A stretch of DNA of 19,134 bases from an uncultured Caulobacterales bacterium (GTDB taxonomy: Bacteria > Pseudomonadota > Alphaproteobacteria > Caulobacterales > Maricaulaceae), in the NCBI GenBank assembly GCA_964483775.1, contig CAZADA010000053.1, positions 1-19,134 on the forward strand. Reading direction: 5' to 3'. Numbering within the stretch: the first letter of the stretch is position 1; every line of letters begins with the position of its first letter. The position numbers and the translations under genes were made by a program. Under the pieces are notes generated by a model, which ran no database searches, was not told the origin of the DNA, and worked only from the letters and a program-made list of their open reading frames with translations. Below are positions 179 to 17,446 of this stretch, in pieces.

Positions 179-390
179 GGGCGCTGACCTTCCGTCCCAG
201 TCTGGACCAACTGATCCTCAACCTGGTGCGGCGCAGATCCGCGCAACGCTTGAAGTTGCTGCTCCCAAACGGCCAATTCTTCAAAGAGCGGGTTCGAAAC
301 CTCTCCCCAACTCCCCGCCACTTGTATTTGATTTAATTGGAAATTTTTGCAATAGTAGAATTCTACTAATAACCTACTGCAAGTTTTCAC
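175..390 (-). CDS. Hypothetical 71-aa ORF (possible relic 3' end of a gene disrupted by the island)
   Basis: Its stop TGA (comp 175-177) overlaps the ATG of the MobC-like gene as ATGA, a typical translational-coupling junction. Its 5' third lies in low-GC island DNA and its 3' two-thirds in high-GC DNA, so it is compositionally chimeric. Confidence 0.2.
   Translation of the reverse strand: MKTCSRLLVEFYYCKNFQLNQIQVAGSWGEVSNPLFEELAVWEQQLQALRGSAPHQVEDQLVQTGTEGQRP
353..368. promoter_or_regulatory. 16-bp perfect palindrome TAGTAGAATTCTACTA, a putative operator in the promoter region of the island cassette
   Basis: Perfect dyad read directly from the sequence. It lies 35-110 bp upstream of the candidate starts of ORF 403/478. 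Flanking -35-like hexamers (TTGATT at 328-333, TTGCAA at 347-352) place it over the -10/spacer region. Confidence 0.5.
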
Positions 391-402
391 TTAGTATTTT
401 CA

Positions 403-927
403 GTGGTAGGGCTTGCAGTGAACGTTCTTACCTGCGTTGTTTTGACTCACCTAAACAAGACTATTGAGGCAAGCAAGTTGACTACGCGCGACGAACTTTA
501 TGCTAAATTCGGAATAACCGCAGAAGCAGCGCAACTCTTTGAGACAGAACTTGGCACCCTTCTTTTAGCTGTAAACGCGCTGGAAAACGGCTGGCACATT
601 GAACCGGACCCAATGCAAGCGCGAAAGGCGCTCAACCAGATTGAGAAACACACCCTTGGTCGGCTGATTGGTGCATTGCGTGGGAAGGTGGAGTTTGAAG
701 GCGACTTAGAAGGCCGCTTCGCTTCGGCCTTGAAAGCACGTAATCGGCTTAACCACGGCTTCTATGAGCGACACAACTTCAAGATACAGTCGGACGAAGG
801 GCGTGACGTTATGTTTGCTGACTTAGATGTGTTACACGAAGAACTTTTCCAAGCATGGCAGATTGCCTCTGCAATGACTGATGCGATGTCAAAACTTGTT
901 CACAAGCTGCATTCAAGTACCAGTTAG
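403..927 (+). CDS. Hypothetical protein with a HEPN-like R-x4-H-x2-Y motif (ALKARNRLNHGFYERH); the likely true start is TTG 478
   Basis: ORF in the low-GC island. TTG at 478 is preceded by GAGG 9 nt upstream, giving 149 aa. The motif RNRLNHGFY in the C-terminal third resembles the Rx4-6H catalytic motif of HEPN RNases (compare HepT 'RNxxxHxY'). There is no other recognisable domain. Confidence 0.55.
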   Translation: MVGLAVNVLTCVVLTHLNKTIEASKLTTRDELYAKFGITAEAAQLFETELGTLLLAVNALENGWHIEPDPMQARKALNQIEKHTLGRLIGALRGKVEFEGDLEGRFASALKARNRLNHGFYERHNFKIQSDEGRDVMFADLDVLHEELFQAWQIASAMTDAMSKLVHKLHSSTS

Positions 928-1020
928 GAATTGTCACACGCATTGTTTGGTCAGCACGATGTTGTATGGGCCTTCTTTGCTTAGTACACTCTATGCGAGC
1001 ATTGAACTCAGGAGAAAACA

Positions 1021-1383
1021 TTGGAACCAATTGAAGTATTTGCCGATTTCTACCCCCCTCGTTGGGGGCATACTGACCGCTATAGGTTTGTATTTGCCAA
1101 GGACCGTTTGGAAATCGCGCATGGCGCGCGCAAATGTGCAGCCGTTTGGAGCGAAACTACTGACCCAACATGGGAAGGAGAACCGCTTGTCAGAACTATG
1201 AAGAACGATTCAATCTATCCGCCGGATGGGATTGAAGGCTTAATTGAGTTCCTCTGGCGGGCATGGCGCGACGCTCAACTCGACAGAGAACAGTTGCAGG
1301 ACGAATTAACTGCCTTTGTTAACTATGTTAATGCTTCGACAAACGCGAAGCCCGAAACCGATTTCTGGCGCGGTATATTCTAG
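1021..1383 (+). CDS. Hypothetical 120-aa protein, second gene of the island cassette
   Basis: TTG start with an AGGAG RBS 8 nt upstream. It shares strand and low GC with the 403-927 gene, separated by a 93-bp gap. No recognisable motif, and no GSx10DxD nucleotidyltransferase motif. Confidence 0.55.
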   Translation: MEPIEVFADFYPPRWGHTDRYRFVFAKDRLEIAHGARKCAAVWSETTDPTWEGEPLVRTMKNDSIYPPDGIEGLIEFLWRAWRDAQLDREQLQDELTAFVNYVNASTNAKPETDFWRGIF

Positions 1384-1419
1384 CAAGAAGACGCGATCAG
1401 TTAGCGAGAACTAGAGTGC

Positions 1420-3688: not shown

Positions 3689-4286
3689 TCCTGCAGGCTC
3701 GCCTGTTTGTGGGCGCCCTCCCCCTCGCCAACAACCACAGCGCCGGCGCCCGGGAACCGCGCCGGCGCCCGCCAACGCTTGAGTCGCTGTGCCGGAGTCC
3801 CACCAGATCTGACGTCCCAATTGGCGTGCGCCAGCCCGGTCCAGGAAAAGACAGCCTCTTCCCAACGCTTCACCCATTCGGCATGACGCCGCGCCTTCTC
3901 CGCCCGCCTCTCCTCGTCTGACCGTTCCGCCATCGCGCCCTCCCCGCCGCCGCGTTATGGCCGCCCCGACCACGGCTCGCGACGGTCGAGCGCGCAGCGG
4001 CCCGCGCGGGGGACCCTGGCTTGGCGCACATCACAACGCGCGGATGCGCAAGGGACGCTTAAGACTGAGCGCGTACTCAGCGGATGGCGCCTTCAACGCG
4101 CATGACGACCATCGCCCAGAAACAGTCTTAAAGAGCCTGGACATAAGCCATCAACCGCCACGCCGGCCGTTCGTCCTGACGGCGACAAAGACCGTTGACG
4201 TCAGCCGGTAATCAGCCGACAGAAAACCGGCGTGACGAGGAGTATTCAATGGAGCGTTGGTAATCCAACGTCCAAGGGAGGTATGT

Positions 4287-5510
4287 GTGTCCAAGTCACC
4301 AGTGCTTGGCGCAGTGACGGGTACAGCCGCGATAGCGGTGTTGACGTGCACAGCGCCCGCCCAAGATCTCAAGGCCGTTCTCGACGATGGCAAGCCCATC
4401 CTCGATGTGCGCCTTCGCTATGAGTTTGTCGATCAAGATGGTTTTGCGCAGACGGCGAACGCCGCAACGCTCCGCACGAGGCTGGGGTTTGAGACCGGCG
4501 AGTGGGCTGGTTTCCGCGTGCTTCTTGAGGCGGAGAACATTACCGACCTCTCCGACGACGGGTTCAACTCGACCACAAACGGGCAATCCCAGTTCCCCGT
4601 TGTTGCAGATCCAGAGGCCACCGAGATCAATCGCGCGCTCGTCTCCTACACGGCAATTCCCAATACGGATGTCGTATTGGGGCGCCAGCGGATTATCCTG
4701 AACAACTCACGGTTTGTGGGGAATGTGGGATTTCGCCAGAACGAGCAGACCTTTGACGCCGTGAGCATCAGCCACAAACCGGTCGAGCCGGTGGAGCTCA
4801 CTTACATTTACATCGATCGCGTGCATCGCGTTTTCGGCGATGAAAACCCGGCCGGAGAGTTCAACAGCAACTCGCACGTTGTCCAAGCTGACATCACAAC
4901 GCCCATCGGCGACCTAAGCGCCTATGGTCTGCTTTTCGACTTTGATGATGCGCCCGCAGCATCCACCAATACGCTCGGTGCGCGTTTGACGGGTCCATTA
5001 GCGACGTTAGGCCAGATCACAACACGCTACACAGCAGAGTACGCGCATCAAACAGACGCCGCCGACAACGCCAACGAGTTTGATTTGAGCTACGCCTCAG
5101 CGTTACTGACAGCTCAGCGCAATCACTGGTCCGCCGGCTTCGGAGTCGAGTGGCTTGAGGGCGACGGCGCTGTTGGATTTTCAACGCCTCTCGGGACTTT
5201 ACACGCCTTTCAGGGCGCCGCGGATGTGTTTCTGACAACACCAGCGCAAGGCGTTCGGGATCTCTACGTTCAAGGTGGAACCACCCTTCCCAAGTCGCCA
5301 ATTGGTCGCGGCGCCAAACTGTTTGTGCGATATCACGACTTCACGAGCGATGACGGCGATCTGGATTTCGGGAGCGAGCTCAACACCGTCTTCGACATGA
5401 AGCTCACCGAGCTCGTCGACTTTCAAGCCAAGGCCGCCATCTATGATGGCGGTGACGATGGGTTCGCAGATCGCACCAAAGTGTGGGTCGCACTCCAATT
5501 GCGCTATTAG
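4287..5510 (+). CDS. Outer-membrane beta-barrel protein, alginate-export (AlgE-like) family
   Basis: GTG at 4287 with GGGAGG 5 nt upstream. Signal peptide MSKSPVLGAVTGTAAIAVLTCTAPA|QD. Family-typical segments ILDVRLRYEFVDQDGF, ATLRTRLGFE, RQRIILNNSRFVGNVGFRQNEQTFDAVSI. The protein ends in the aromatic residue ...LQLRY. Confidence 0.65.
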   Translation: MSKSPVLGAVTGTAAIAVLTCTAPAQDLKAVLDDGKPILDVRLRYEFVDQDGFAQTANAATLRTRLGFETGEWAGFRVLLEAENITDLSDDGFNSTTNGQSQFPVVADPEATEINRALVSYTAIPNTDVVLGRQRIILNNSRFVGNVGFRQNEQTFDAVSISHKPVEPVELTYIYIDRVHRVFGDENPAGEFNSNSHVVQADITTPIGDLSAYGLLFDFDDAPAASTNTLGARLTGPLATLGQITTRYTAEYAHQTDAADNANEFDLSYASALLTAQRNHWSAGFGVEWLEGDGAVGFSTPLGTLHAFQGAADVFLTTPAQGVRDLYVQGGTTLPKSPIGRGAKLFVRYHDFTSDDGDLDFGSELNTVFDMKLTELVDFQAKAAIYDGGDDGFADRTKVWVALQLRY

Positions 5511-5695: not shown

Positions 5696-8600
5696 ATGGC
5701 AAGAGGGACCACCATGCCACGCAACACTTCGAAGGCTCGCCGCCGCGGCGGCGCAGGCTTACTCGCCGCCCTGGGCGGCTTGGCGTTTCTCGGCGACCGT
5801 GCGGCCGCCGAGCAAAACACTGGATTCACCGCCGCCAGCGAGATCGAAGGCGTCGATCAGATTCAACGCAACGCGGACGGCTCGGTCACTCTGATTACCG
5901 AGGACGGGCGGACGGCCACCATCCCGGCCGAACAGGTCAGCATCCAGGACGGTGCGGTGTTGATCGCCAACGAAGCGATCGCCAACGTCGAATTCAGCGA
6001 TGGCGGCAACAACGCTGTGCTGGTCGGTCTTGGCGTCGCCGCGGTGGCGGGCGGCATCGCGTTGGCGGCAAGCGACGATGATGATGACAATGACGTACCG
6101 GTCGACCCGATCGATCCCAACACCAACGACACCTTCGTTGTGAACGCGGTCAATGACGGCGAGACCATTGACGGCGGCGGCGACACCAACGGCGCCACAG
6201 CGACATCCGCTGATGACATTGCGACCGGCGACACCATCGACCTGTCGGGCCTGACCGAAGGCGTGAATGTGGACCTCGACAGCTCCAATCAAGGCGCGCT
6301 GAACAACGCGCCGGAGAGCCAAACCGGAGCGCTCATCCAGGGGGAGAACACCGTCACGCTCGAAAACATCGAGAATGTGATCGGCACCGATCAGGACGAC
6401 ACCTTGTTCGGCAACAACGAGGCGAACGTGATCCTGGGCGGCGCCGGGGATGACAACATCCACCCGTTCGGCGGAACCGACTTTGTCGATGGCGGCGAGG
6501 GTGTCGATACCCTCAACCTGTCGGCGGCCACCGGCGTCACCGTGGATTTGGAGGCCGGCGTGGCTGGTCCGAACACCTTCGTGAATTTCGAGAACGTGCT
6601 CGGCTCGGTGAACGGCGACGACCAGATCTTCGGCGACGACGGGGTGAACGTTCTGAACGGCCGCGATGGCGACGACCTGCTCAACGGCCGTGGCGGTGGC
6701 GATACGCTGATCGGCGGAGCCGGCCAGGACGTGTTCGCTTTCTCGGGCGATCCCTTCGACGGCGCGGACGTGTCGGCGGCGGGCCGGCAAATCATCGGAA
6801 ACGAGGACTTCATTGAAGACTTCGAGTTCGGCGTCGACACGTTGACGGTTCAGGTGGACAGCGCCCCGTCTTCAGCGGCCGTGCTCCAGGCGGCGCTCGA
6901 CGGCGACATCTACTACAACATCCACTCCAGCGACTTCCCGGCCGGCGAAGTCCGCGGCCAGCTCACTTTGGTCTCCGACGACCGTGACGAGAATGGCGTG
7001 GGGGATGTGACCTTCACCGCATCTCTGGACGGGGCCCAGGAGGTTCCGCCAGTGGCGACCGACGCTGCGGGCACGGGCGACATCACTTTTTCCGTCGCCG
7101 CCGACGGCACGGTGACCTACACGACCACGGTCGAACTGACGGATTTCGACATCGCCCGTCTTACTGTCGGCCACCTGCACCAGGCCCCAGTCGGCCAGAA
7201 TGGTCCAGTGGTTGAGGACATCCTCGCGGACGCCCGCAATGACGGCGAGATCGAAGGCGGTCTCATCGACTTCGACCGTTATCAGCTCGATGCGACGGAC
7301 TTCGGCGTGACCGACGATGTGGCCTTCGCGGCGGTTGACGCCAACGATCCCAACGCCACGATCCCGACCGGCGCCAATGTCATCGTTCTGCTGAACAGCG
7401 ACAACGACGCCGATCCGTCGACCCCCTTCCTCGCCGGCACGGCGGCGGGCCAGATCGCGGCCCTGGTCGACGAACCGGGCGCGGGCTTCTTCGTCTACTT
7501 TAATTCAAATCTCGAGGTGAACCGGCTCGTCTACTCGACCGATCTCTCGGATCCGACGGCTGATCTGAAGATCGTCTCCCGCCAGACCGATCTCACCGGT
7601 CAGGACGCCATCGACGCGCTTGCGAGCTTCTCGGCTGAGAACTTCGAGTTCGTGAACGTGGTTCCGACGGACGACACCTTCGTTGTGGGCGCGGTCGTCG
7701 ACGGCGACGAGATCATCGGCGGCCTCGACAACAATGTCGACGGCTCCGACGACGCCGGCGACATCGCCACGGGCGACACGATCGACCTGTCGACCCTCGG
7801 CGCCGGCGTGTCCGTGGACCTCGACGCCTCGAACCAGGGCGCCCTCAATCCCGCGCCTGAGAGCCAGTCCGGCACGCTCACGCAGGCTGGCGCGACGGTG
7901 ACGCTGACCGACGTGGAAAACGTCATCGGCACCGACTTCGACGACGTTCTGTTCGGCAACAATGAGAACAACGTCATTCTCGGCGGGGCCGGCAACGACA
8001 ACATCCACCCCTTCGGCGGTGTTGACTTCGTGGACGGCGGCGACGGCGTGGACACGCTGAACCTCTCGGCGGCCACCGGCGTGACGGTGGATCTTGAGAC
8101 CAGCTCGGTGGGTCCGAACACCTTCGTGAACTTCGAGAACGTGCTCGGCTCCGTGAACGGCGACGACACCATCCTCGGCGATGCGGAGGTCAATAACCTC
8201 AACGGCCGCGACGGCGACGACCTCCTGAACGGCCGAGGGGGCGCGGACGTCCTCACTGGCGGAACGGGCGCCGACGTGTTCGCTTTCGACGAGGCCGGCG
8301 TGAACGACGGCGCTCAGGAAGACGAGATCACGGATTTCGACTTCACGAACGATCGCTACCAGCTCGACTCCGGCAGCTTCGGCGTGGAAGGCGACGTCAC
8401 GTTCCAAAGCCTGGATGCGAACGCGGCCGGCGCAACCGTGGATCCGGACGCCAACGTCATCGTCCTGCTTAATGGCGACAATGACAGCGATCCGAGCACG
8501 GTGTTCAATGCTCGGTCAGCGGCGACGCAGATCGCTGATCTTGGCGGAGAGGGCGCTGGTTTCTTCGTCTACTTCAACAGCGCGCTGAACATTAATCGCT

Positions 8601-8932
8601 TGGTCTTCTCGGAAGATCTCGCCGACGCCGACGCCGCGCTGCAGATCGTGTCGCGTCAGACAGACCTCACCGGCCAAGACGCCATCGACGCCCTGGCCAA
8701 CTTCTCCGAAGACAACTTCGCCTTCGTCAATGTCGACACCGCCGCCGCAGCCCCAGCGAGCACCGATGTGGCGTTCGTGTCGTTGACCGACGGGGACGAG
8801 ACCGACCTTCGCACCGTCAACGACGCCAAAGACGTGATGGCTGAAGCGTCAAACGCCCCGGCAGGCGCGCACGAACACGCCGACGTCGACGCCGCGCCAA
8901 CCCCGCTGCCTGAAAGCAGCGACGGCTGGTAG
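5696..8932 (+). CDS. Large RTX-type calcium-binding repeat protein (1078 aa) with CHRD-like motifs; putative type I secretion substrate
   Basis: Many GGxGxDxUx nonapeptide repeats (LGGAGDDNIHPFGGTDFVDGGEGVDTL; LNGRDGDDLLNGRGGGDTLIGGAGQDVFAF). CHRD-like segments (AALDGDIYYNIHSSDFPAGEVRGQL; LDGAQEVPPVATDAAGTGD...VGHLHQAPVGQNGPVV). It sits immediately upstream of the ABC/HlyD/TolC genes. An alternative start at ATG 5714 has a GAGGGA RBS. The N-terminus is signal-peptide-like (RRRGGAGLLAALGGLAFLGDRAAA), followed by a second hydrophobic helix and a DDDDDND tract. Confidence 0.85.
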   Translation: MARGTTMPRNTSKARRRGGAGLLAALGGLAFLGDRAAAEQNTGFTAASEIEGVDQIQRNADGSVTLITEDGRTATIPAEQVSIQDGAVLIANEAIANVEFSDGGNNAVLVGLGVAAVAGGIALAASDDDDDNDVPVDPIDPNTNDTFVVNAVNDGETIDGGGDTNGATATSADDIATGDTIDLSGLTEGVNVDLDSSNQGALNNAPESQTGALIQGENTVTLENIENVIGTDQDDTLFGNNEANVILGGAGDDNIHPFGGTDFVDGGEGVDTLNLSAATGVTVDLEAGVAGPNTFVNFENVLGSVNGDDQIFGDDGVNVLNGRDGDDLLNGRGGGDTLIGGAGQDVFAFSGDPFDGADVSAAGRQIIGNEDFIEDFEFGVDTLTVQVDSAPSSAAVLQAALDGDIYYNIHSSDFPAGEVRGQLTLVSDDRDENGVGDVTFTASLDGAQEVPPVATDAAGTGDITFSVAADGTVTYTTTVELTDFDIARLTVGHLHQAPVGQNGPVVEDILADARNDGEIEGGLIDFDRYQLDATDFGVTDDVAFAAVDANDPNATIPTGANVIVLLNSDNDADPSTPFLAGTAAGQIAALVDEPGAGFFVYFNSNLEVNRLVYSTDLSDPTADLKIVSRQTDLTGQDAIDALASFSAENFEFVNVVPTDDTFVVGAVVDGDEIIGGLDNNVDGSDDAGDIATGDTIDLSTLGAGVSVDLDASNQGALNPAPESQSGTLTQAGATVTLTDVENVIGTDFDDVLFGNNENNVILGGAGNDNIHPFGGVDFVDGGDGVDTLNLSAATGVTVDLETSSVGPNTFVNFENVLGSVNGDDTILGDAEVNNLNGRDGDDLLNGRGGADVLTGGTGADVFAFDEAGVNDGAQEDEITDFDFTNDRYQLDSGSFGVEGDVTFQSLDANAAGATVDPDANVIVLLNGDNDSDPSTVFNARSAATQIADLGGEGAGFFVYFNSALNINRLVFSEDLADADAALQIVSRQTDLTGQDAIDALANFSEDNFAFVNVDTAAAAPASTDVAFVSLTDGDETDLRTVNDAKDVMAEASNAPAGAHEHADVDAAPTPLPESSDGW
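6128..6745 (+). repeat. Intragenic repeat A1 (RTX beta-roll module), diverged direct repeat of 7674-8292
   Basis: The peptide DTFVVNAV...GGAGQDVFAF aligns residue-for-residue with DTFVVGAV...GGTGADVFAF. Sampled DNA stretches are ~80% identical. Coordinates are approximate. Confidence 0.6.
7262..7668 (+). repeat. Intragenic repeat B1 (post-RTX 'DRYQLD...FFVYFNS...IVSRQTDLTGQDAIDAL' module), copy of 8338-8733
   Basis: DFDRYQLDATDFGV...ANVIVLLNSDNDADPST...AGFFVYFNSNLEVNRLVYS...LKIVSRQTDLTGQDAIDALASFSAENFEFVNV aligns with DRYQLDSGSFGV...ANVIVLLNGDNDSDPST...AGFFVYFNSALNINRLVFS...LQIVSRQTDLTGQDAIDALANFSEDNFAFVNV. Confidence 0.6.
7674..8292 (+). repeat. Intragenic repeat A2 (RTX beta-roll module), copy of 6128-6745
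   Basis: See A1. Confidence 0.6.
8338..8733 (+). repeat. Intragenic repeat B2, copy of 7262-7668
   Basis: See B1. Confidence 0.6.
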
Positions 8933-8942
8933 CCGACCTTGT

Positions 8943-8975
8943 CCCCGGGGCATGTCCCCCCTCTCTGCCCCGGGG
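8943..8975 (+). terminator. Stem-loop (10-bp stem CCCCGGGGCA/TGCCCCGGGG, 13-nt loop) followed by ATCATTTGT, between the RTX gene and the ABC gene; putative intrinsic terminator/attenuator
   Basis: Read directly from the sequence. It starts 11 bp after the RTX stop and lies 44 bp before the ABC start. This is the classic position of the substrate-transporter attenuator in T1SS operons. Confidence 0.45.
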
Positions 8976-9018
8976 ATCATTTGTCAACTCACTCCCAGCA
9001 GCTTGAAGGACGCCATCC

Positions 9019-10749
9019 ATGTCCAGTTCTCCGCAACGCATCGGCGTATTTTCATGGCTCGCCAAGCTGCGCAACGAAACGCGCGGGTCCTTCACCTTGA
9101 TCCTCGCCTTTAGCCTGGTCGCCAATCTGTTGTTATTGGTGGCCCCGCTTTACATGTTGCAGGTCTATGATCGGGTGCTGGTCTCGGGATCCACCGACAC
9201 CTTGATTTGGCTGACATTGCTCGCGGTGTTTTTGCTCAGCGTCTATGGCGCAGCAGAAGCGGGGCGTCGGCGCGTTTGCGGACTGGCCGGCGCGAAGTTG
9301 GAAGCCCGCGTGTCCAAACGGGTCTTCCAACGGTTTGAAAACGCCATGGGGCCCGGCGCGCGCCTTTCCGGCCAGCTGCACACCGTCGCCCGCGTCCAGG
9401 GCGTGTTTCAGAACAACACCCTTTTGCCGTTTTTCGACTTGCCATTCGCGCCGTTGTTTTTGGGCGTGATGTTCTTGATCCACCCTTCGCTCGGGCTGTT
9501 GGGGTTAAGTGGTGCGGGGTTGATTTTCATCGTCGCGATCATCGCCGAATTGAGCACGCGGCGATCGAGCGAACTCGCCTCATCACGCAGCGCACAGGCG
9601 CTCGAGTTCGCCGCAGGCCTTGACCGACAACGCTCAGCGATCGTGGCCATGGGCCTTGCCGGCCCGGTGTTTGGCCGGTGGGCGGAAATCAAAGCGGCCG
9701 GTCGCGGACAAGGTTTGCGGGCGGCCAAGCGCGACGCGTTTTTCACCGCGTCGGCGCGGTCAACGCGGCAAATCCTCCAAATCTTGATCCTCGGCGCCGG
9801 CGCCGCGTTGGCGCTGGCCCAACAGATTTCTCCAGGGGCGATTGTCGCAGCATCGATCATTTTGTCCCGCGCGCTAGCCCCCATCGACCAAATCGTCGGC
9901 GGCTGGCGGTCGCTCACCCAATCGCGCCAGGCCTGGGCGGACTTGCAGCACAGCTTGGCCGACGACACCGAGCCGGCACAGTACACCGAGCTGCCGCGTC
10001 CCGACGCGCACCTCCAGATCGACCGATTGTCCGTGGTCACACCGGGGCGCAGCGCCACTTTGATCCGTCCGTTCAGTTTTGAAGCGACAGGCGGACAACT
10101 GATCGCCGTGGTCGGCGACAATGGTTCGGGTAAGACAACGCTATTGCAGACCTTGGCGAGCGCCTGGCCGCCAGGGTCGGGCGCGGTGTCGCTAGGCGGA
10201 CGATCAGTTCACGAATGGCCCCACGCCGACCGCGGTCCGTATGTCGGCTATGTGCCGCAAGATGTTGAGCTCTTGCCGGCCACAGCGGCCGCCAACATCG
10301 CCCGGTTGGGCGCGCTTCAGTCGGACGCCGTGGTCGACGCGGCGCGGCGGGCGGGCGCTCACGCCACAATCCTCAGCCTCAGCGACGGCTACGACACGCT
10401 TGTCGGCCCTGGCGGCGCCCATTTGTCGGCCGGACAACGCCAGCTCATCGGCCTGGCGCGCGCGCTGTATAACGATCCAGTCTTGCTGTTGTTGGATGAA
10501 CCGACCGCCAATCTCGACGCTCAAACCGCCGCGGCCGTGTGCGCCACCTTGCGAGAGACCGCGGCGCACAACGCGATTGTGATCGCGGCGACCCATGACG
10601 AGCGCCTCATCGGCGTGGCCGACATTGTGCTGGTCGTCCGTCACGGCGCGGTCATGGCCGCCGCCCCCGATCAGGTTCTCGCCGTCAACGAACGGCAAAC
10701 GCCGACGCCGCTGTTCCCCAACACCGTTCAAAGAACACGAGGTGCGTGA
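9019..10749 (+). CDS. Type I secretion system ABC transporter ATPase/permease (PrtD/HasD type, no C39 peptidase domain)
   Basis: N-terminal LYMLQVYDRVLVSGSTDTL signature of T1SS ABC proteins. TM region then NBD with Walker A GDNGSGKTT, Q-loop, signature LSAGQRQ (A for the usual G), Walker B LLLLDEP and H-loop ATHD. AAGGA RBS 8 nt upstream. Confidence 0.85.
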   Translation: MSSSPQRIGVFSWLAKLRNETRGSFTLILAFSLVANLLLLVAPLYMLQVYDRVLVSGSTDTLIWLTLLAVFLLSVYGAAEAGRRRVCGLAGAKLEARVSKRVFQRFENAMGPGARLSGQLHTVARVQGVFQNNTLLPFFDLPFAPLFLGVMFLIHPSLGLLGLSGAGLIFIVAIIAELSTRRSSELASSRSAQALEFAAGLDRQRSAIVAMGLAGPVFGRWAEIKAAGRGQGLRAAKRDAFFTASARSTRQILQILILGAGAALALAQQISPGAIVAASIILSRALAPIDQIVGGWRSLTQSRQAWADLQHSLADDTEPAQYTELPRPDAHLQIDRLSVVTPGRSATLIRPFSFEATGGQLIAVVGDNGSGKTTLLQTLASAWPPGSGAVSLGGRSVHEWPHADRGPYVGYVPQDVELLPATAAANIARLGALQSDAVVDAARRAGAHATILSLSDGYDTLVGPGGAHLSAGQRQLIGLARALYNDPVLLLLDEPTANLDAQTAAAVCATLRETAAHNAIVIAATHDERLIGVADIVLVVRHGAVMAAAPDQVLAVNERQTPTPLFPNTVQRTRGA

Positions 10750-12053
10750 TGATTGATCCGCTCAATCCGCCGGTCAAAGACCGGTTCACGATCGCAATGG
10801 CGCTTGTGTGCCTGATAGGGTTTGGCGGTTTTGTCGCGTGGGCGGCGCTGGCGCCGTTGGAAGAGGGCGTGGCGGCGGCTGGACAGATGGTCGTGGAGAC
10901 CGACCGCCAGGTCGTTCAACACCTCGAAGGCGGCATCATTCGCGACCTCAACGTCAAGGAAGGCGATCTGGTCGTCGCTGGCGATGTTCTGGTGGTGCTT
11001 GAGGACACAGCCGCCCTCGCGCGTCGAGATCAGGTCCTGCAAAACCTTGCTGCGCTCATCGCCACGGTGTCCCGCCTGCGCGCCTTGCAATCGGGCGCGG
11101 ACACGGTCGCGTTCGCCGTGCTCGACACGTGGAGCTTGGGCGACGCCGAGCGGGCCGACATCATCGAGCGCGAAACCAGCCTGTTTGATCAACAACGCGG
11201 CTCGGCCCGCGCAGATATGGCGGTGCTGAGCGCCCGCCGCGACGCGGCGCTGACGACCCAAAGCTTGAGAGCGCAGGAAATCGCCTTCACAGAACAGGCG
11301 TTGACCGCGGCGCAAGAAGAACTCGCTCTCGCCCGAGATCTTGCCGCCGAACAACTGGCGCGACGCGATCAAGTCAGCGGCCTGCAGCGGTCTGTGGCGA
11401 CGCTTGAGAGCGAAATCGCCCGCTTGACCAGCGAGCGCGAACAGGCGGGCGCGCAAGCGCGTGATCTCGATGGGCAGATCGCACAAACTGAAGCTGATTT
11501 TCAACGCGATGTGTCCGCGCAGTTGCGCGATGCGCGCGCCGATGTGTTGGCGGCTGAGGAAAGTCTCAGCGCGGCCCAAGATGTGCTGGACCGCGCGGTG
11601 ATCCGCGCGCCGGTGTCGGGCCAAGTGTTGAACCTAGCGTTTTCGACCCGCGGCGGGGTTATTCGTCCTGGCGACACGCTTTTGGAGATTGTGCCGGAGG
11701 TTGAAACCTTGACGGCGTCTGTGCGCATTCGGCCGGCTGATCGAGCCTCGGTGTATGTCGGCCAACCGGTGCGTACGCGCGTGCTAGCGTATCGCAGCTG
11801 GCGGGCCCCGCGGCTGCAGGGCGAGATCGTCACCATCAGCGCTGATCTCAAAAACGATCCACAAACAGGCGCGCTCTATTACGACGCGCGGATCAGGATC
11901 CCTCATGACGAAGCAACAAAAGCATCTGAACTTGAGATCACGCCGGGAATGCCAGTAGAGGCCTTCCTGTTTTCTGGATCAAGCCGAACAACTCTCGATT
12001 ACATATTTGAGCCGATTGCGGAATCCATGTTTCGCGGCTTTCGGACCTCTTAG
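10746..12053 (+). CDS. Type I secretion periplasmic adaptor (HlyD-family membrane fusion protein)
   Basis: N-terminal TM, then LAPLEEGVAAAGQMVVETDRQVVQHLEGGIIRDLNVKEGDLVVAGDVLVVLEDT and long coiled-coil (Q/A/R/E-rich) segments typical of HlyD. The start GTG 10746 or ATG 10749 overlaps the ABC stop (GTGATG). Confidence 0.85.
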   Translation: MMIDPLNPPVKDRFTIAMALVCLIGFGGFVAWAALAPLEEGVAAAGQMVVETDRQVVQHLEGGIIRDLNVKEGDLVVAGDVLVVLEDTAALARRDQVLQNLAALIATVSRLRALQSGADTVAFAVLDTWSLGDAERADIIERETSLFDQQRGSARADMAVLSARRDAALTTQSLRAQEIAFTEQALTAAQEELALARDLAAEQLARRDQVSGLQRSVATLESEIARLTSEREQAGAQARDLDGQIAQTEADFQRDVSAQLRDARADVLAAEESLSAAQDVLDRAVIRAPVSGQVLNLAFSTRGGVIRPGDTLLEIVPEVETLTASVRIRPADRASVYVGQPVRTRVLAYRSWRAPRLQGEIVTISADLKNDPQTGALYYDARIRIPHDEATKASELEITPGMPVEAFLFSGSSRTTLDYIFEPIAESMFRGFRTS

Positions 12054-12073
12054 CGCCCATCGGACGGGGACCC

Positions 12074-13420
12074 ATGATGCTGACACCTTTCTTGACAGCC
12101 GCCATGACGGCCACTTGCGCGGCGATCGCCACCGCGATCCCAGCCATGGCGCAAGACGCCGACGCCTGCCTGCTGCTCAACGACGCGATGGAACGGGCAG
12201 CGTTGCGTGACCCTGGCGCCGACCTTGCGGCGGCCCAACGCGACGCCGCTGCCGCCAATGTGAGCGACGCGCGAGCATTGCGCCGCCCGCAAGTGTCTGC
12301 GTTTGGCCGCACAGGGATTGGCGACTCCGACCTGGTCGAAAACCGAATTGAGAACCAAGTCGGCTTGCGCGTCTCCCAACGGGTGTTTGATTTCGGCGAT
12401 TCCGCATTTGCACGCCGGGCGGCGCTGGAAAGCGTCGCGGCGAGCGAGTTCACCATGGCGGCGGCCAAACAGGACGCCGCGCTTCGCGCAGGTCTCGCCT
12501 TTTTCACCGTCCAAGAGGCCTATGCCAGTTTGATCGCCACCCAAGAGCGCACGGCGTACTTTCGGCGCGAGCTTGGCGCGGTTGAGGCGCTGCTGGCGCG
12601 CGGCGGCGCCACGCGGCCCGAACGTGCAGAAGTCGCCGCCGAACTGGCCGCTTCCCAGGCGCTGACTCTGGAATGGGAGTTCATACGCGACCGAGCGATG
12701 ACCCAGGTGGCGCTCGCCGCCGAGCTGGACACACCGCCGTGTGCGAACGGGGATCGTCATGCCGCCGATCTGGGCGATGTCGGCCTGCAGCCAGCACAGG
12801 TTTCAGTACGCGACGCGATGACGCGCAATCCGACCGTGCGCGCGCTCGGTCGGGAAATCGACAGCCTAACGGCGAGCCGTGATCGCGAACGGCGCAATCG
12901 CCTGCCGGTGTTGGATGTGGTGGGCGTGGCCGCCTACACCTATGACGATTTCACCGGTGCTTGGGAGTTGCGCGATCGGGTCGGGGTTGACGTGTCGGTC
13001 CCGATTTACTCCGGCGCCGCGTTGCGCGCGCAGGTCGAACGGGCGGATGCGCGACTGTCGGAGGCGGTCGCCCGCAGGCGCGCAGCCGAACGTCAGCTTG
13101 AACAAGACGTTCGCATTGCCCACCGCCGTGTGGCGTCGTTGGCTGAACAATATGTGTTTCGCCGCCGGGTCGAGATCGAAAAGTCCAACCAATTCGCCGC
13201 GGCCGAACGCGAACATGAGCGCGGTTTGTTGACGCTCCCGGACCTTGTGGAGATCCGACTGGAATTTGAGGACGCCGCCCTGGCGGCCATCCGCGCACAC
13301 TACGATCTGCAGCGCCAGCGGCTGCAACTGGCGTCTTTGACGGGCGGCCTTGCTCAACATCTCGCCCTCAACGAGCCGGCCGAGGATCCCACACGGTTTG
13401 CGACCCTCATCTTGGAATAA
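12074..13420 (+). CDS. TolC-family outer-membrane efflux protein, T1SS outer-membrane component
   Basis: Signal peptide MMLTPFLTAAMTATCAAIATAIPAMA|QDA. Two-repeat alpha-helical/beta-barrel OEP-like pattern. Position directly after ABC+HlyD. The start could also be ATG 12077. Confidence 0.75.
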   Translation: MMLTPFLTAAMTATCAAIATAIPAMAQDADACLLLNDAMERAALRDPGADLAAAQRDAAAANVSDARALRRPQVSAFGRTGIGDSDLVENRIENQVGLRVSQRVFDFGDSAFARRAALESVAASEFTMAAAKQDAALRAGLAFFTVQEAYASLIATQERTAYFRRELGAVEALLARGGATRPERAEVAAELAASQALTLEWEFIRDRAMTQVALAAELDTPPCANGDRHAADLGDVGLQPAQVSVRDAMTRNPTVRALGREIDSLTASRDRERRNRLPVLDVVGVAAYTYDDFTGAWELRDRVGVDVSVPIYSGAALRAQVERADARLSEAVARRRAAERQLEQDVRIAHRRVASLAEQYVFRRRVEIEKSNQFAAAEREHERGLLTLPDLVEIRLEFEDAALAAIRAHYDLQRQRLQLASLTGGLAQHLALNEPAEDPTRFATLILE

Positions 13421-13529: not shown

Positions 13530-14387
13530 CTAGATGAAGCGGTCGGCGAGCGTCTCAGCCAGGCTCTCAAGCTCCGCCGTTGGGCGATCGCCGATCACAA
13601 GATAGCCGCGCGGCTGAACATCCCACAGCACCGCGTTGAGATCGCGGGCGCTTGCGGCGCGGAAACTCACCGGCGCGCCATCAGGCTCGCGGCCAGTGCG
13701 GAAGATCACACAAAACGCTACCGGCGTGCCGTCCTCATGAGTGTAGGCCAACTGCGCCAAGGGAAGTCCGTTGAGCTGCAACAACTCCGCCCGCTGAAGG
13801 GTGAGGTTAGGCAGGTCGGCGGCCAGAGCCAGATCGACTCCCACAGCATCGCTCACGCGTTGGATTTGGCCGGCCAGTTCGCCCGCATCGACCACGGTCT
13901 CGGCGAAGGTATCCGTGTTGAACAGCGCGACATAATCGGCCACCGCCATCATCCAGGTGCGCGGAGCCGGTTCGATCTCGACTTCGACAATTTGCGTCGG
14001 CCCCGGCACGGGAACTTCGCGCGCCGGCGGCGCGAGCGGACCGCGGCCAATGAACACACCGGTGGTCAAAACGGCGGCGATACCGGCCGCCAGGGCCGCC
14101 CATTCGCGCGCGCGCCGCGGATTTTTTGGATCGTCAGCATAGCTCGCTGCGGCTCGTTCGGCGGCCGCCAGACGTTCGACAAGCGCCTCGCTCGGCGCGT
14201 TTTGCAAGACAAGGTCGAAAGCGGGACGAACCAACTCAGCAAAATCATCCAACGCCATCAGCCGCGTTTGCAGCGCATCATCGGCGTCAACTTCAAGGGC
14301 CGCGTCGATTTCGGCGCGCAAGACATCGTCGGCCTCGTCATCGAGATACGCCCGCAGCTGTTCGTCGGTGAACCGGAGACTGCTCAT
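13530..14387 (-). CDS. Transmembrane anti-sigma factor partner of the adjacent ECF sigma
   Basis: The true start MSSLRFTDEQLRAYLDDEADDVLRAEIDAAL... (ATG comp 14385-14387) overlaps the sigma-factor stop as ATGA. A single TM helix (WAALAAGIAAVLTTGVFIG) is followed by a ~130-aa extracytoplasmic domain. The table ORF (to 14519) carries a 44-aa artefactual extension. Confidence 0.6.
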   Translation of the reverse strand: MSSLRFTDEQLRAYLDDEADDVLRAEIDAALEVDADDALQTRLMALDDFAELVRPAFDLVLQNAPSEALVERLAAAERAAASYADDPKNPRRAREWAALAAGIAAVLTTGVFIGRGPLAPPAREVPVPGPTQIVEVEIEPAPRTWMMAVADYVALFNTDTFAETVVDAGELAGQIQRVSDAVGVDLALAADLPNLTLQRAELLQLNGLPLAQLAYTHEDGTPVAFCVIFRTGREPDGAPVSFRAASARDLNAVLWDVQPRGYLVIGDRPTAELESLAETLADRFI

Positions 14388-14908
14388 GGCGTGTCCCCCG
14401 TCTTCGGTTCGGCCATCTCGTGTTTGAGATGCGCAAGCGCTTTTCGCGCCGCGGCGAGCCGGCTCATCACCGTCCCGATCGGAATCTCCAGCGCCGCCGC
14501 CGCGTCCTTGTATGTCCATCCTTCAACGTACACCAGCATGACCACAATACGCTGCGCTTCGGGCAACGCTCCTACTGTGGTCAACACCTGTTGCGCCAGA
14601 ATATTCGTTTCAAGTTGACCGGTATAATCGACCGTCAGGGCTTCGGTTGCGTCCAAAAGGCCGGAGCCGCGGCGAACAGCCTCACTTCGGATCTGATTTT
14701 TCCAAATCGATGACAGGATTGCGAAGGTCCAATGATCCAGGCGTGAGCCGGGTTGGAATTGGTCGGCGCGTTGTAACGCCCGCTCACACGTCGCTTGAAC
14801 CAGATCGTCCGCTGTTGACCGGTCGCCGCAGGTCACCACCGCAAACCGCCAAAGGCGGTCGAGCAGAGCTGGCAAGCCCTCTCGAACGGCGGATTGCGTT
14901 GAGGACAT
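14384..14908 (-). CDS. ECF-subfamily RNA polymerase sigma-70 factor
   Basis: Region 2 (DRLWRFAVVTCGDRSTADDLVQATCERAL) and region 4 HTH (YKDAAAALEIPIGTVMSRLAAARKAL). ATG at comp 14906-14908; the TTG at 14911 would add one residue. Confidence 0.85.
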   Translation of the reverse strand: MSSTQSAVREGLPALLDRLWRFAVVTCGDRSTADDLVQATCERALQRADQFQPGSRLDHWTFAILSSIWKNQIRSEAVRRGSGLLDATEALTVDYTGQLETNILAQQVLTTVGALPEAQRIVVMLVYVEGWTYKDAAAALEIPIGTVMSRLAAARKALAHLKHEMAEPKTGDTP

Positions 14909-17370: not shown

Positions 17371-17446
17371 GCTTGGATAGCTCAAATGGGAGAGCACATG
17401 CCTTTTAAGCATGAGGTTTCGGGTTCGAGTCCCGTTCCAAACTCCA
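17371..17446 (+). tRNA. tRNA-Lys (anticodon UUU)-like, 76 nt, with two non-Watson-Crick stem pairs; possibly a degenerate copy
   Basis: Hand-folded. Acceptor GCTTGGA/TCCAAAC has a C2·A71 mismatch. U8. D-arm GCTC-AAATGGGA-GAGC. Anticodon arm CATGC-CTTTTAA-GCATG (U33, anticodon TTT, A37). 5-nt variable loop. T-arm TCGGG-TTCGAGT-CCCGT has U49·U65. Discriminator U73, then CCA. The minus-strand reading shows the GGGACTCGAACCC hallmark. Confidence 0.5.

Follow-up and report, generated by a model that had tools for sequence, protein, structure and literature searches.

A candidate HEPN-like defence gene and an unrelated cassette-family gene at a tRNA-Ser integration site of a Caulobacterales bacterium

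HEPN domains are four-helix bundles in which helices 2 and 3 are often separated by an insert, an Rx4-6H motif sits at the end of helix 3, the arginine is followed by a polar residue (Asn, Asp or His) and an acidic residue is often present further upstream (PMC3710099). Fusions of DUF4145-type HEPN domains to UvrD and SF2 (superfamily 2) helicases and to restriction nucleases have been described (PMC3710099). In P2 prophages, the interval between the genes gpA and gpQ is a defence hotspot (Rousset et al. 2022, PMC9122126). Here, we describe a gene with a HEPN-like motif, gene A (478-927, + strand), and the gene downstream of it, gene B (1021-1383, + strand), on contig CAZADA010000053.1 of an uncultured Caulobacterales bacterium. 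The entire contig (19,134 bp) was analyzed and is called the window in the following.

Both genes lie in a block of low G+C content (GC) with sharp edges (290-1383; 40-50% GC vs. ~63%). GC amounted to 0.619 at 1-289, 0.404 at 290-477, 0.493 in gene A, 0.441 in the spacer (928-1020), 0.499 in gene B, 0.605 at 1384-1497 and 0.634 in the remainder of the window, and GC at third codon positions was 0.51 for gene A and 0.50 for gene B compared to 0.75 for the convergent neighboring LysR gene. These values bear out the low-GC stretch described in an earlier note on this DNA, and the two co-directional open reading frames (ORFs) listed there (403/478-927 and 1021-1383) are both present. The note had further proposed that the two genes form a new toxin-antitoxin or defence module. 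Instead, the block consists of two cargo genes that have no relation to each other, situated at a hotspot of integration into tRNA-Ser, and is not a toxin-antitoxin pair. With moderate confidence, we interpret gene A as a stand-alone minimal HEPN-type RNase defence gene at this hotspot, to which gene B is unrelated; a new HEPN-like defence cargo gene, and no new toxin-antitoxin module, is a plausible description of the locus.

A large protein family with a conserved R-N-x-L-x-H motif

Translation of gene A likely starts at the TTG at 478 (149 amino acids) and not at the GTG at 403, as homologues have a length of ~150 amino acids and begin with MATRDELY, and as a GAGG ribosome-binding site is located 8 nt before the TTG. 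Counted from this start, the motif RNRLNHGFY (nt 739-765) comprises R88 to Y96, with R88-N89-x-L91-x-H93 at nt 739-756. The motif had already been recognized in the earlier note, but with the numbering R98/H103, which fits neither start codon.

A word-indexed search yielded at least 455 homologues of gene A, most of them 60-78% identical, with hosts among the Rhodobacterales, Hyphomicrobiales, Sphingomonadales and others; none of these 455 had a Pfam domain, and none was informatively named. With an exhaustive profile search, 1,466 representative clusters (50% identity) were obtained at E<=1e-3. Almost all of these represent stand-alone proteins with ~150-170 amino acids, and they range over Alphaproteobacteria, some Gammaproteobacteria and P2-like phages. 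Gene A also matches PHROG_12893 (3e-21), which is annotated as of unknown function. Direct assignment to Pfam, NCBIfam or PADLOC gave no significant match, and gene A represents a large unnamed protein family without a model in these three collections (PADLOC in its 2023 version).

To describe conservation, 77 diverse members that are 23-60% identical to gene A were aligned. G12 and H93 were invariant, while Q19, E22, T59, G61, A84, R88, N89, L91, G108 and L116 were conserved in at least 90% of the sequences. RNxLxH is the signature of the family, and R88-x4-H93 is also kept in gp38 of phage PsP3 and in a copy on a Pantoea plasmid. It is this conservation across the family that gives the R-x4-H motif weight, since its occurrence in one lone sequence is not significant.

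The AlphaFold 2 model of the protein was obtained with high confidence (predicted local distance difference test, pLDDT, 93.7; predicted template modelling score, pTM, 0.86) and is all-helical, with helices at residues 4-37, 45-56, 60-68, 77-92, 95-98 and 106-148. In this predicted structure R88-N92 end the third main helix (77-92) and H93 opens a loop. The protein thus shares with HEPN domains the Rx4-6H motif, the polar residue after the arginine (N89) and, in the model, the position at the end of helix 3. Both this placement and the conservation within the family support the earlier claim that the motif occupies the catalytic position of HEPN RNases, but no HEPN fold or profile match reached significance, neither with the confident helical model nor with the sequences.

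Below the cut-offs, members of the family matched a number of HEPN models in Pfam. The best of these was DUF4145 (E=0.001, 19.5 bits vs. a cut-off of 23.1, residues 55-98), which was matched by the family consensus and 4/77 members. HEPN_Apea was likewise matched by the consensus and 4/77 members (best E 0.01), HEPN_LA2681 by 2/56 close homologues in a second alignment, A1 (best E 0.0026), the HepT-like family PF01934 by 2/77 members (best E 0.006), HEPN_Swt1 by 1/77 (best E 0.013), HEPN_Cthe2314 by 3/77 (best E 0.014), DUF4209 by 1/77 members and 5/56 close homologues (best E 0.028) and HEPN_RiboL-PSP by 3/77 (best E 0.036). Most of the matches for which a region was given span the part of gene A from helix 2 over helix 3 to the motif. 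In PADLOC no model exceeded its threshold, but the sub-threshold matches were to HEPN-bearing models (Cas13-ApeA, Cas13a/b, CARF_HEPN, Csx1/Csm6 and RTasHEPN). That the weak matches of the family concentrate on at least eight families of the HEPN clan is no more than suggestive.

Several results weigh against an assignment to HEPN. All HEPN matches in Pfam remained under the cut-off and the window protein itself matched none of the models; PADLOC has no model for it. Foldseek searches of the model against PDB and BFVD returned nothing below E=0.04, and fold searches were non-specific, with generic helical bundles only. Profile searches against PDB sequences gave no HEPN protein, and a PDB sequence search gave no match at all. 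An hhalign comparison of gene A (alignment A3) with the HEPN family Ymh (PF09509) resulted in a probability of 0.5%. Here, the Ymh alignment had been built from a neighboring gene of one gene A locus (L007) and was shallow (Neff 2.3), and we treat the outcome as one failed test and not as a refutation, HEPN families being mutually very divergent. The conserved acidic residue, E22, is located in helix 1 and not in helix 2, with no Lys or Arg at +4, and is not part of an Ex3[KR] motif. Finally, a free RNase without a conserved inhibitor should be toxic. Weighing motif, predicted structure and weak matches against these points, we consider it fairly probable, though unproven, that gene A belongs to the HEPN superfamily.

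If so, the protein would be a minimal HEPN-type, metal-independent RNase of ~150 amino acids. It may dimerise via the two long helices at its ends, which would join two R-N-x-L-x-H motifs into one composite active site. We infer that such an enzyme, once triggered, would cut cellular or phage RNA and lead to a growth stop, i.e. abortive infection. With an active HEPN RNase, the 1,466 clusters at 50% identity would constitute a new large family.

Genomic neighborhoods of gene A

Loci of gene A were surveyed in 51 genomes with a homologue and on further contigs. In 14 of the 51 genomes, gene A is located directly 3' of a UvrD helicase gene on the same strand (640-760 amino acids), with offsets of -43 to -6 nt, and this helicase matches the GajB models of PADLOC at 1e-44. 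Over all loci surveyed, helicase-A pairs are present in L007, L008, L011-L015, L019, L021, L028, L029, L034, L052, L057-L059 and L068 (e.g. L014:4072-6459). The pairs are often found beside tRNA-Met or an integrase gene. No match was found in the literature for a two-gene system of UvrD and HEPN, and among the main ORFs of the window that were scanned against Pfam there is no UvrD helicase.

A second type of context is the vicinity of a tRNA gene. In about 10 genomes, gene A lies 140-450 bp past the 3' end of a tRNA (Ser-CGA, Ser-GGA, Glu or Thr), while in other genomes the helicase-A pair abuts tRNA-Met or tRNA-Ser. Close sister copies of gene A were detected at different tRNAs (at Ser in L002, at Glu in L005) with unrelated upstream regions, which argues that the coding sequence of gene A moves between sites. 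In most loci, gene A is lower in GC than the host genome. In a neighbor-joining tree, the solo tRNA-linked clade, which includes gene A of the window, is nested among helicase-linked clades.

These linkages open two further interpretations of gene A. In the first, the family might be the RNase effector of an undescribed defence system, with an ancestral operon of a GajB-like UvrD helicase as sensor and a mini-HEPN protein as effector. This system would be an analogue of Gabija that cuts RNA instead of DNA, and the solo copies, as in the window and in the P2 hotspot, would be autonomous single-gene abortive-infection RNases. We put this forward tentatively and hold it to be possible, on the lower side of even chances. 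In the second, the product of gene A would be no nuclease but a helical protein that assists or regulates the UvrD/GajB-like helicase as a subunit, e.g. by modulating its loading when a mobile element is replicated or maintained; solo copies would then be orphans whose helicase has been lost. In agreement with this, helicase-linked copies are distributed over several clades with the solo tRNA-linked clade among them, gene A overlaps or directly adjoins the helicase gene, fold searches returned only generic helical bundles and the profile-profile test with Ymh was negative. However, the conserved residues are the catalytic HEPN residues R, N and H together with Q19 and E22 and do not outline a helicase-binding surface. 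In addition, solo copies are intact and 60-89% identical in many genera and also occur in helicase-free phage hotspots; as they stay intact without a helicase, an autonomous function of gene A is argued for. A role as helicase subunit is therefore regarded as rather unlikely.

Neighboring genes of a defence type were observed in several loci, namely an overlapping gene for a Mrr_cat protein (L024), a CAP12/Pycsar TIR protein (L042) and a HigA-like helix-turn-helix protein (L044). In L001, gene A is followed by an ORF other than gene B and by a WHH nuclease gene. An identical block of ~7 kb occurs at three chromosomal sites (L054:4702-11949, and L055 and L056 with the same coordinates) and contains, in this order, genes for a 439-amino-acid protein, AbiJ_NTD3, AbiJ_NTD4, a 203-amino-acid protein, A, a 306-amino-acid membrane protein and a 183-amino-acid protein. 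As proposed in the earlier note, relatives of gene A do occupy conflict and defence neighborhoods at the edges of mobile elements. The neighborhood census revealed these defence-type contexts and the helicase partner in 14/51 genomes, but it did not identify gene B as a conserved partner.

Homologues of gene A were also found in P2-like phages. PsP3 gp38 is 39% identical to gene A and is encoded by the last gene of the phage genome. A homologue of gp38 is present in 31 of 5,426 E. coli genomes, and in the one locus inspected it is located between the P2 replication endonuclease gene (gpA) and the portal gene (gpQ). In the supplementary table of Rousset et al. (PMC9122126), this E. coli homologue at gpA-gpQ is listed as 'hypothetical'. 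In IMG/VR, an alphaproteobacterial gene A was found on one contig only, where the order helicase-A-tRNA-Met forms the contig end. Gene A occupies the outermost position of islands integrated at tRNAs and comes last in a P2-like phage genome, and its product is small and single-domain, which would also suit a counter-defence or element-establishment factor at element ends that is aimed at host defences. Yet the gpA-gpQ locus and the neighbors of gene A (Mrr, TIR, AbiJ-NTD and GajB-like helicase) are of a defence type and not of an anti-defence type, and a conserved catalytic-type motif suits an effector. We consider a counter-defence role very improbable.

Some loci contained further features. 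The L055 copy of the ~7-kb block adjoins a ubiquitin-like/ThiF/BubE gene set and a UvrD-PDDEXK gene, and the trio of A, the 306- and the 183-amino-acid protein recurs in L009 and L022. Other proteins with RNxxxH were encoded near gene A: a Ymh/TIGR02391 HEPN protein (8e-38; L007:2169-3601, - strand), a family of 212-214 amino acids with RNEIAH and without Pfam match (L009:858-1502, - strand) and a 215-amino-acid protein with RNEIGH directly 3' of gene A (L018:6460-7107, + strand). An ORF of 87 amino acids directly after gene A in two genera (L003:6540-6803 and L005:6575-6838) gave a weak Cas2-like Pfam match (E=0.001). In Sphingopyxis (L057:10519-15987 and L058), the helicase-A pair is oriented head-on to an imuA-imuB-dnaE2-type mutagenesis cassette, and a large serine recombinase gene is located nearby. 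In the gpA-gpQ hotspot of a P2-like prophage of E. coli SaT040 (L069:2099-5420), the gene A homologue is accompanied by genes for hypothetical proteins of 380 and 158 amino acids and a DUF2971 protein; this arrangement is listed by Rousset et al. (PMC9122126).

Gene B, the tRNA-Ser junction and the upstream region

Gene B encodes a protein of 120 amino acids and is preceded by an AGGAG ribosome-binding site (1010-1014). It matches PF21648, the M1E1E6-like 'integron cassette protein' family, over residues 6-106 (1.5e-29, 102.7 bits vs. a cut-off of 27) and PDB entry 3FY6 over residues 5-120 (3.1e-26). The latter is Vch_cass3, a protein from a Vibrio cholerae integron cassette with a dimeric two-layer alpha+beta fold (PMC3548836). 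These matches clearly place gene B in a family of cassette proteins with known structure. The earlier statement that neither gene resembles a well-known family is thus wrong for gene B; gene A, for its part, has the homologues and the PHROG match given above.

The co-occurrence of the two genes was analyzed next. By tblastn, gene B was absent from the gene A loci of all 51 genomes and from the further contigs examined. Conversely, homologues of gene B without gene A were identified in four loci (L064-L067), which represent two pairs of near-identical places, with transposases, type VI secretion system-type toxin genes and small orphan genes as neighbors. Elsewhere, an A-B pair was obtained only in L063, a contig of 1,316 bp that is ~90% identical, has the same spacer and contains the end of the same LysR gene. 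Due to this identity and synteny L063 is the orthologous locus and provides no independent support for the pair. In a blastn comparison of the window with L001, in which gene A is 89% identical, homology extended from 315 to 966 and ended 39 nt past the stop codon of gene A, i.e. within the intergenic spacer (928-1020). Genes A and B are separable and do not form a conserved unit.

A HEPN toxin A with gene B as novel antitoxin or immunity partner, in a toxin-antitoxin or abortive-infection cassette that is autoregulated via a palindrome, had nevertheless to be weighed. The genes are co-directional, only 93 nt apart and without a terminator-like site between them; both are low in GC, and one related genome (L063) has retained them together with the spacer. 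The family of gene B is dimeric with a proposed binding site (PMC3548836), and in the distant locus L044 the HigA-like antitoxin-type protein follows gene A, which indicates that gene A can hold a toxin-like position. Against this stand the occurrence of each gene without the other, the break of the L001 homology at 966 between the genes, the close orthology and LysR synteny of the sole other A-B locus and the lack of conservation of the palindrome (see below). Among the annotated genes flanking gene A, no gene for a nucleotidyltransferase of the MNT type was found, the gene downstream in the window being the PF21648 member, and the window protein A did not match the HepT-like family PF01934. 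We judge such a cassette to be improbable. In our reading, gene B has no relation to gene A, belongs to the Vch_cass3 family and moves independently; it lies downstream by chance and is no dedicated antitoxin. The locus 290-1383 should accordingly not carry a toxin-antitoxin annotation.

Integron cassettes were considered as well, as PF21648 and the HEPN family of PDB entry 3JRT are both cassette-derived. In the intergenic regions, including the spacer, no pair of attC-like R''/R' boxes (RYYYAAC...GTTRRRY) was detected, and no integrase is encoded among the main ORFs of the window scanned against Pfam. This explanation was rejected.

The left edge of the block coincides with the end of a tRNA gene. 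In L001, L002, L003, L006 and L020, gene A is preceded by an intact tRNA-Ser gene. The sequence at 290-321 (+ strand; GGGTTCGAAACCTCTCCCCAACTCCCCGCCA), which reads GGGTTCGAA...CCGCCA, can be aligned, in the same register, to the T-arm and the acceptor 3' end of these genes and differs from them by a 5-nt insertion and four substitutions. This tRNA-Ser 3'-end remnant forms the junction at which GC drops from 0.62 to 0.40. L063 starts with an unaltered version of the same tRNA end; at the junction of the window, no intact tRNA was found. To the left of the junction, the high-GC DNA contains the 5' part of a gene that is cut by the contig end (2-178, - strand; 59 amino acids). It might encode a ribbon-helix-helix (RHH) relaxosome accessory protein, which was not confirmed: the best evidence was a NikA-like Pfam match over 24 residues at E=0.15, with no NCBIfam match and no tblastn match in plasmids. 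These values do not confirm the earlier designation as a MobC-like relaxosome gene. Nor did the two genes turn out to be cargo on the side of that element, since the block begins at the tRNA-Ser remnant and relatives display the adjacency of tRNA and gene A without the element, which places gene A outside the left-hand element. In the simplest reading of the junction, gene A would directly follow a tRNA-Ser integration site in this lineage, and another element, with the truncated RHH-like gene, would have inserted into that tRNA here and left an attR-like remnant. Following this reading, both A and B would lie outside the left element and would not be carried by it.

Between the remnant and gene A, an AT-rich region (322-477, + strand; GC 0.40) is ~87% identical to L001 and L063 only. 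In the other tRNA-linked loci the region upstream of gene A is unrelated, and tRNA-Ser and tRNA-Glu loci differ from each other. The region contains a perfect 16-bp palindrome (TAGTAGAATTCTACTA, 353-368) without loop and T-run. The palindrome as such had been correctly described in the earlier note, but its position over a promoter was not corroborated, as a consensus scan of 180-1520 found no sigma-70-like promoter. In the closest relatives, 6/8 (L001) and 5/8 (L063) pairs of the arms are retained, with all changes in the left arm, while the palindrome is absent from the other loci and perfect in this window only. In shuffled sequences, at least one perfect 16-bp palindrome occurred in 36% of the whole-window trials and in 0.4% of those for the 188 bp at 290-477; a second one is present at 5738-5753, just inside the start of an RTX/CHRD gene. 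The degradation in L001 and L063 and the different upstream DNA of tRNA-Ser and tRNA-Glu loci speak against the autoregulatory operator that had been proposed. A tRNA terminator or a conserved operator was rejected because the palindrome is not conserved and has neither loop nor T-run. It is not a feature of the family, and may bind something in this lineage.

No intrinsic terminator was found in 180-1520, including the spacer. A GC-rich inverted repeat (GGCGGCGGTA-N12-TACCGCCGCC, 1420-1451) separates gene B from the convergent LysR gene and may act as a transcription stop. The repeat is conserved in L063 with compensating changes; it has no T-run, and the terminator scan did not score it. An Rfam scan of 150-1550 gave no RNA element at E<=1, and no near-identical DNA was found in plasmids.

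Elsewhere in the window, a type I secretion locus (5696-13420) comprises the genes for a 1,078-amino-acid protein with CHRD and RTX repeats, which comes first, an ABC transporter, a HlyD-family adaptor and a TolC-like outer-membrane protein. An intact tRNA-Lys (TTT) gene at 17371-17446 is followed by an SPFH/Band 7 gene. Two long ORFs (4257-5510, + strand, 417 amino acids; 13530-14519, - strand, 329 amino acids) had no Pfam match at E<=0.001.

Comparison with known systems

The family of gene A sits where defence genes are exchanged, and a HEPN-type effector at a defence hotspot would be in line with what specialists expect. Among HEPN families, DUF4145 (PF13643) and the ApeA-like HEPN domain (PF18739) are closest to gene A. 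They share with the predicted protein an all-helical domain of ~150 amino acids, R-N-x3-H where the third main helix ends, and a polar residue following the arginine. They also share conflict-system neighborhoods, and the fusions of DUF4145 to helicases and nucleases mirror the adjacency of gene A to helicase and Mrr genes. In contrast to these families, the match of the gene A family consensus lies below the cut-off, the acidic residue is in helix 1 and the helices at both ends of the protein are very long. HepT of the HepT/MntA system (HEPN-MNT, type VII toxin-antitoxin) resembles gene A as a small stand-alone HEPN-like protein with RN...H followed by an aromatic residue. However, gene A has no nucleotidyltransferase partner, either here or in the 51 loci, and is not part of a conserved two-gene unit, and its motif is R-x4-H-x2-Y compared to R-x4-H-x-Y in HepT.

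The cassette protein Vch_cass3 and gene B have full-length homology, the size of 120 amino acids and a C-terminal aromatic helix (DFWRxxF) in common, whereas no attC site, integrase or cassette array surrounds gene B here. With Gabija, composed of the OLD nuclease GajA and the UvrD helicase GajB, the gene A family shares the layout of a GajB-like helicase and a putative nuclease in 14/51 genomes. Different from Gabija, the partner is a HEPN-like protein of 150 amino acids and not an ATPase-TOPRIM OLD nuclease, and no helicase was found among the scanned main ORFs of the window. With its frequent GajB-like helicase partner, the family would extend the known systems of helicase and DNase by a layout of helicase and RNase. 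The accessory genes between gpA and gpQ of P2-like phages (old, tin and others) share their hotspot with the gene A homologue PsP3 gp38/E. coli WP_001576649 (39% identical), which the accessible part of Rousset et al. (PMC9122126) does not name as one of the tested systems. Unlike these phage genes, gene A of the window is chromosomal and tRNA-adjacent, in an alphaproteobacterium and with no P2-like phage.

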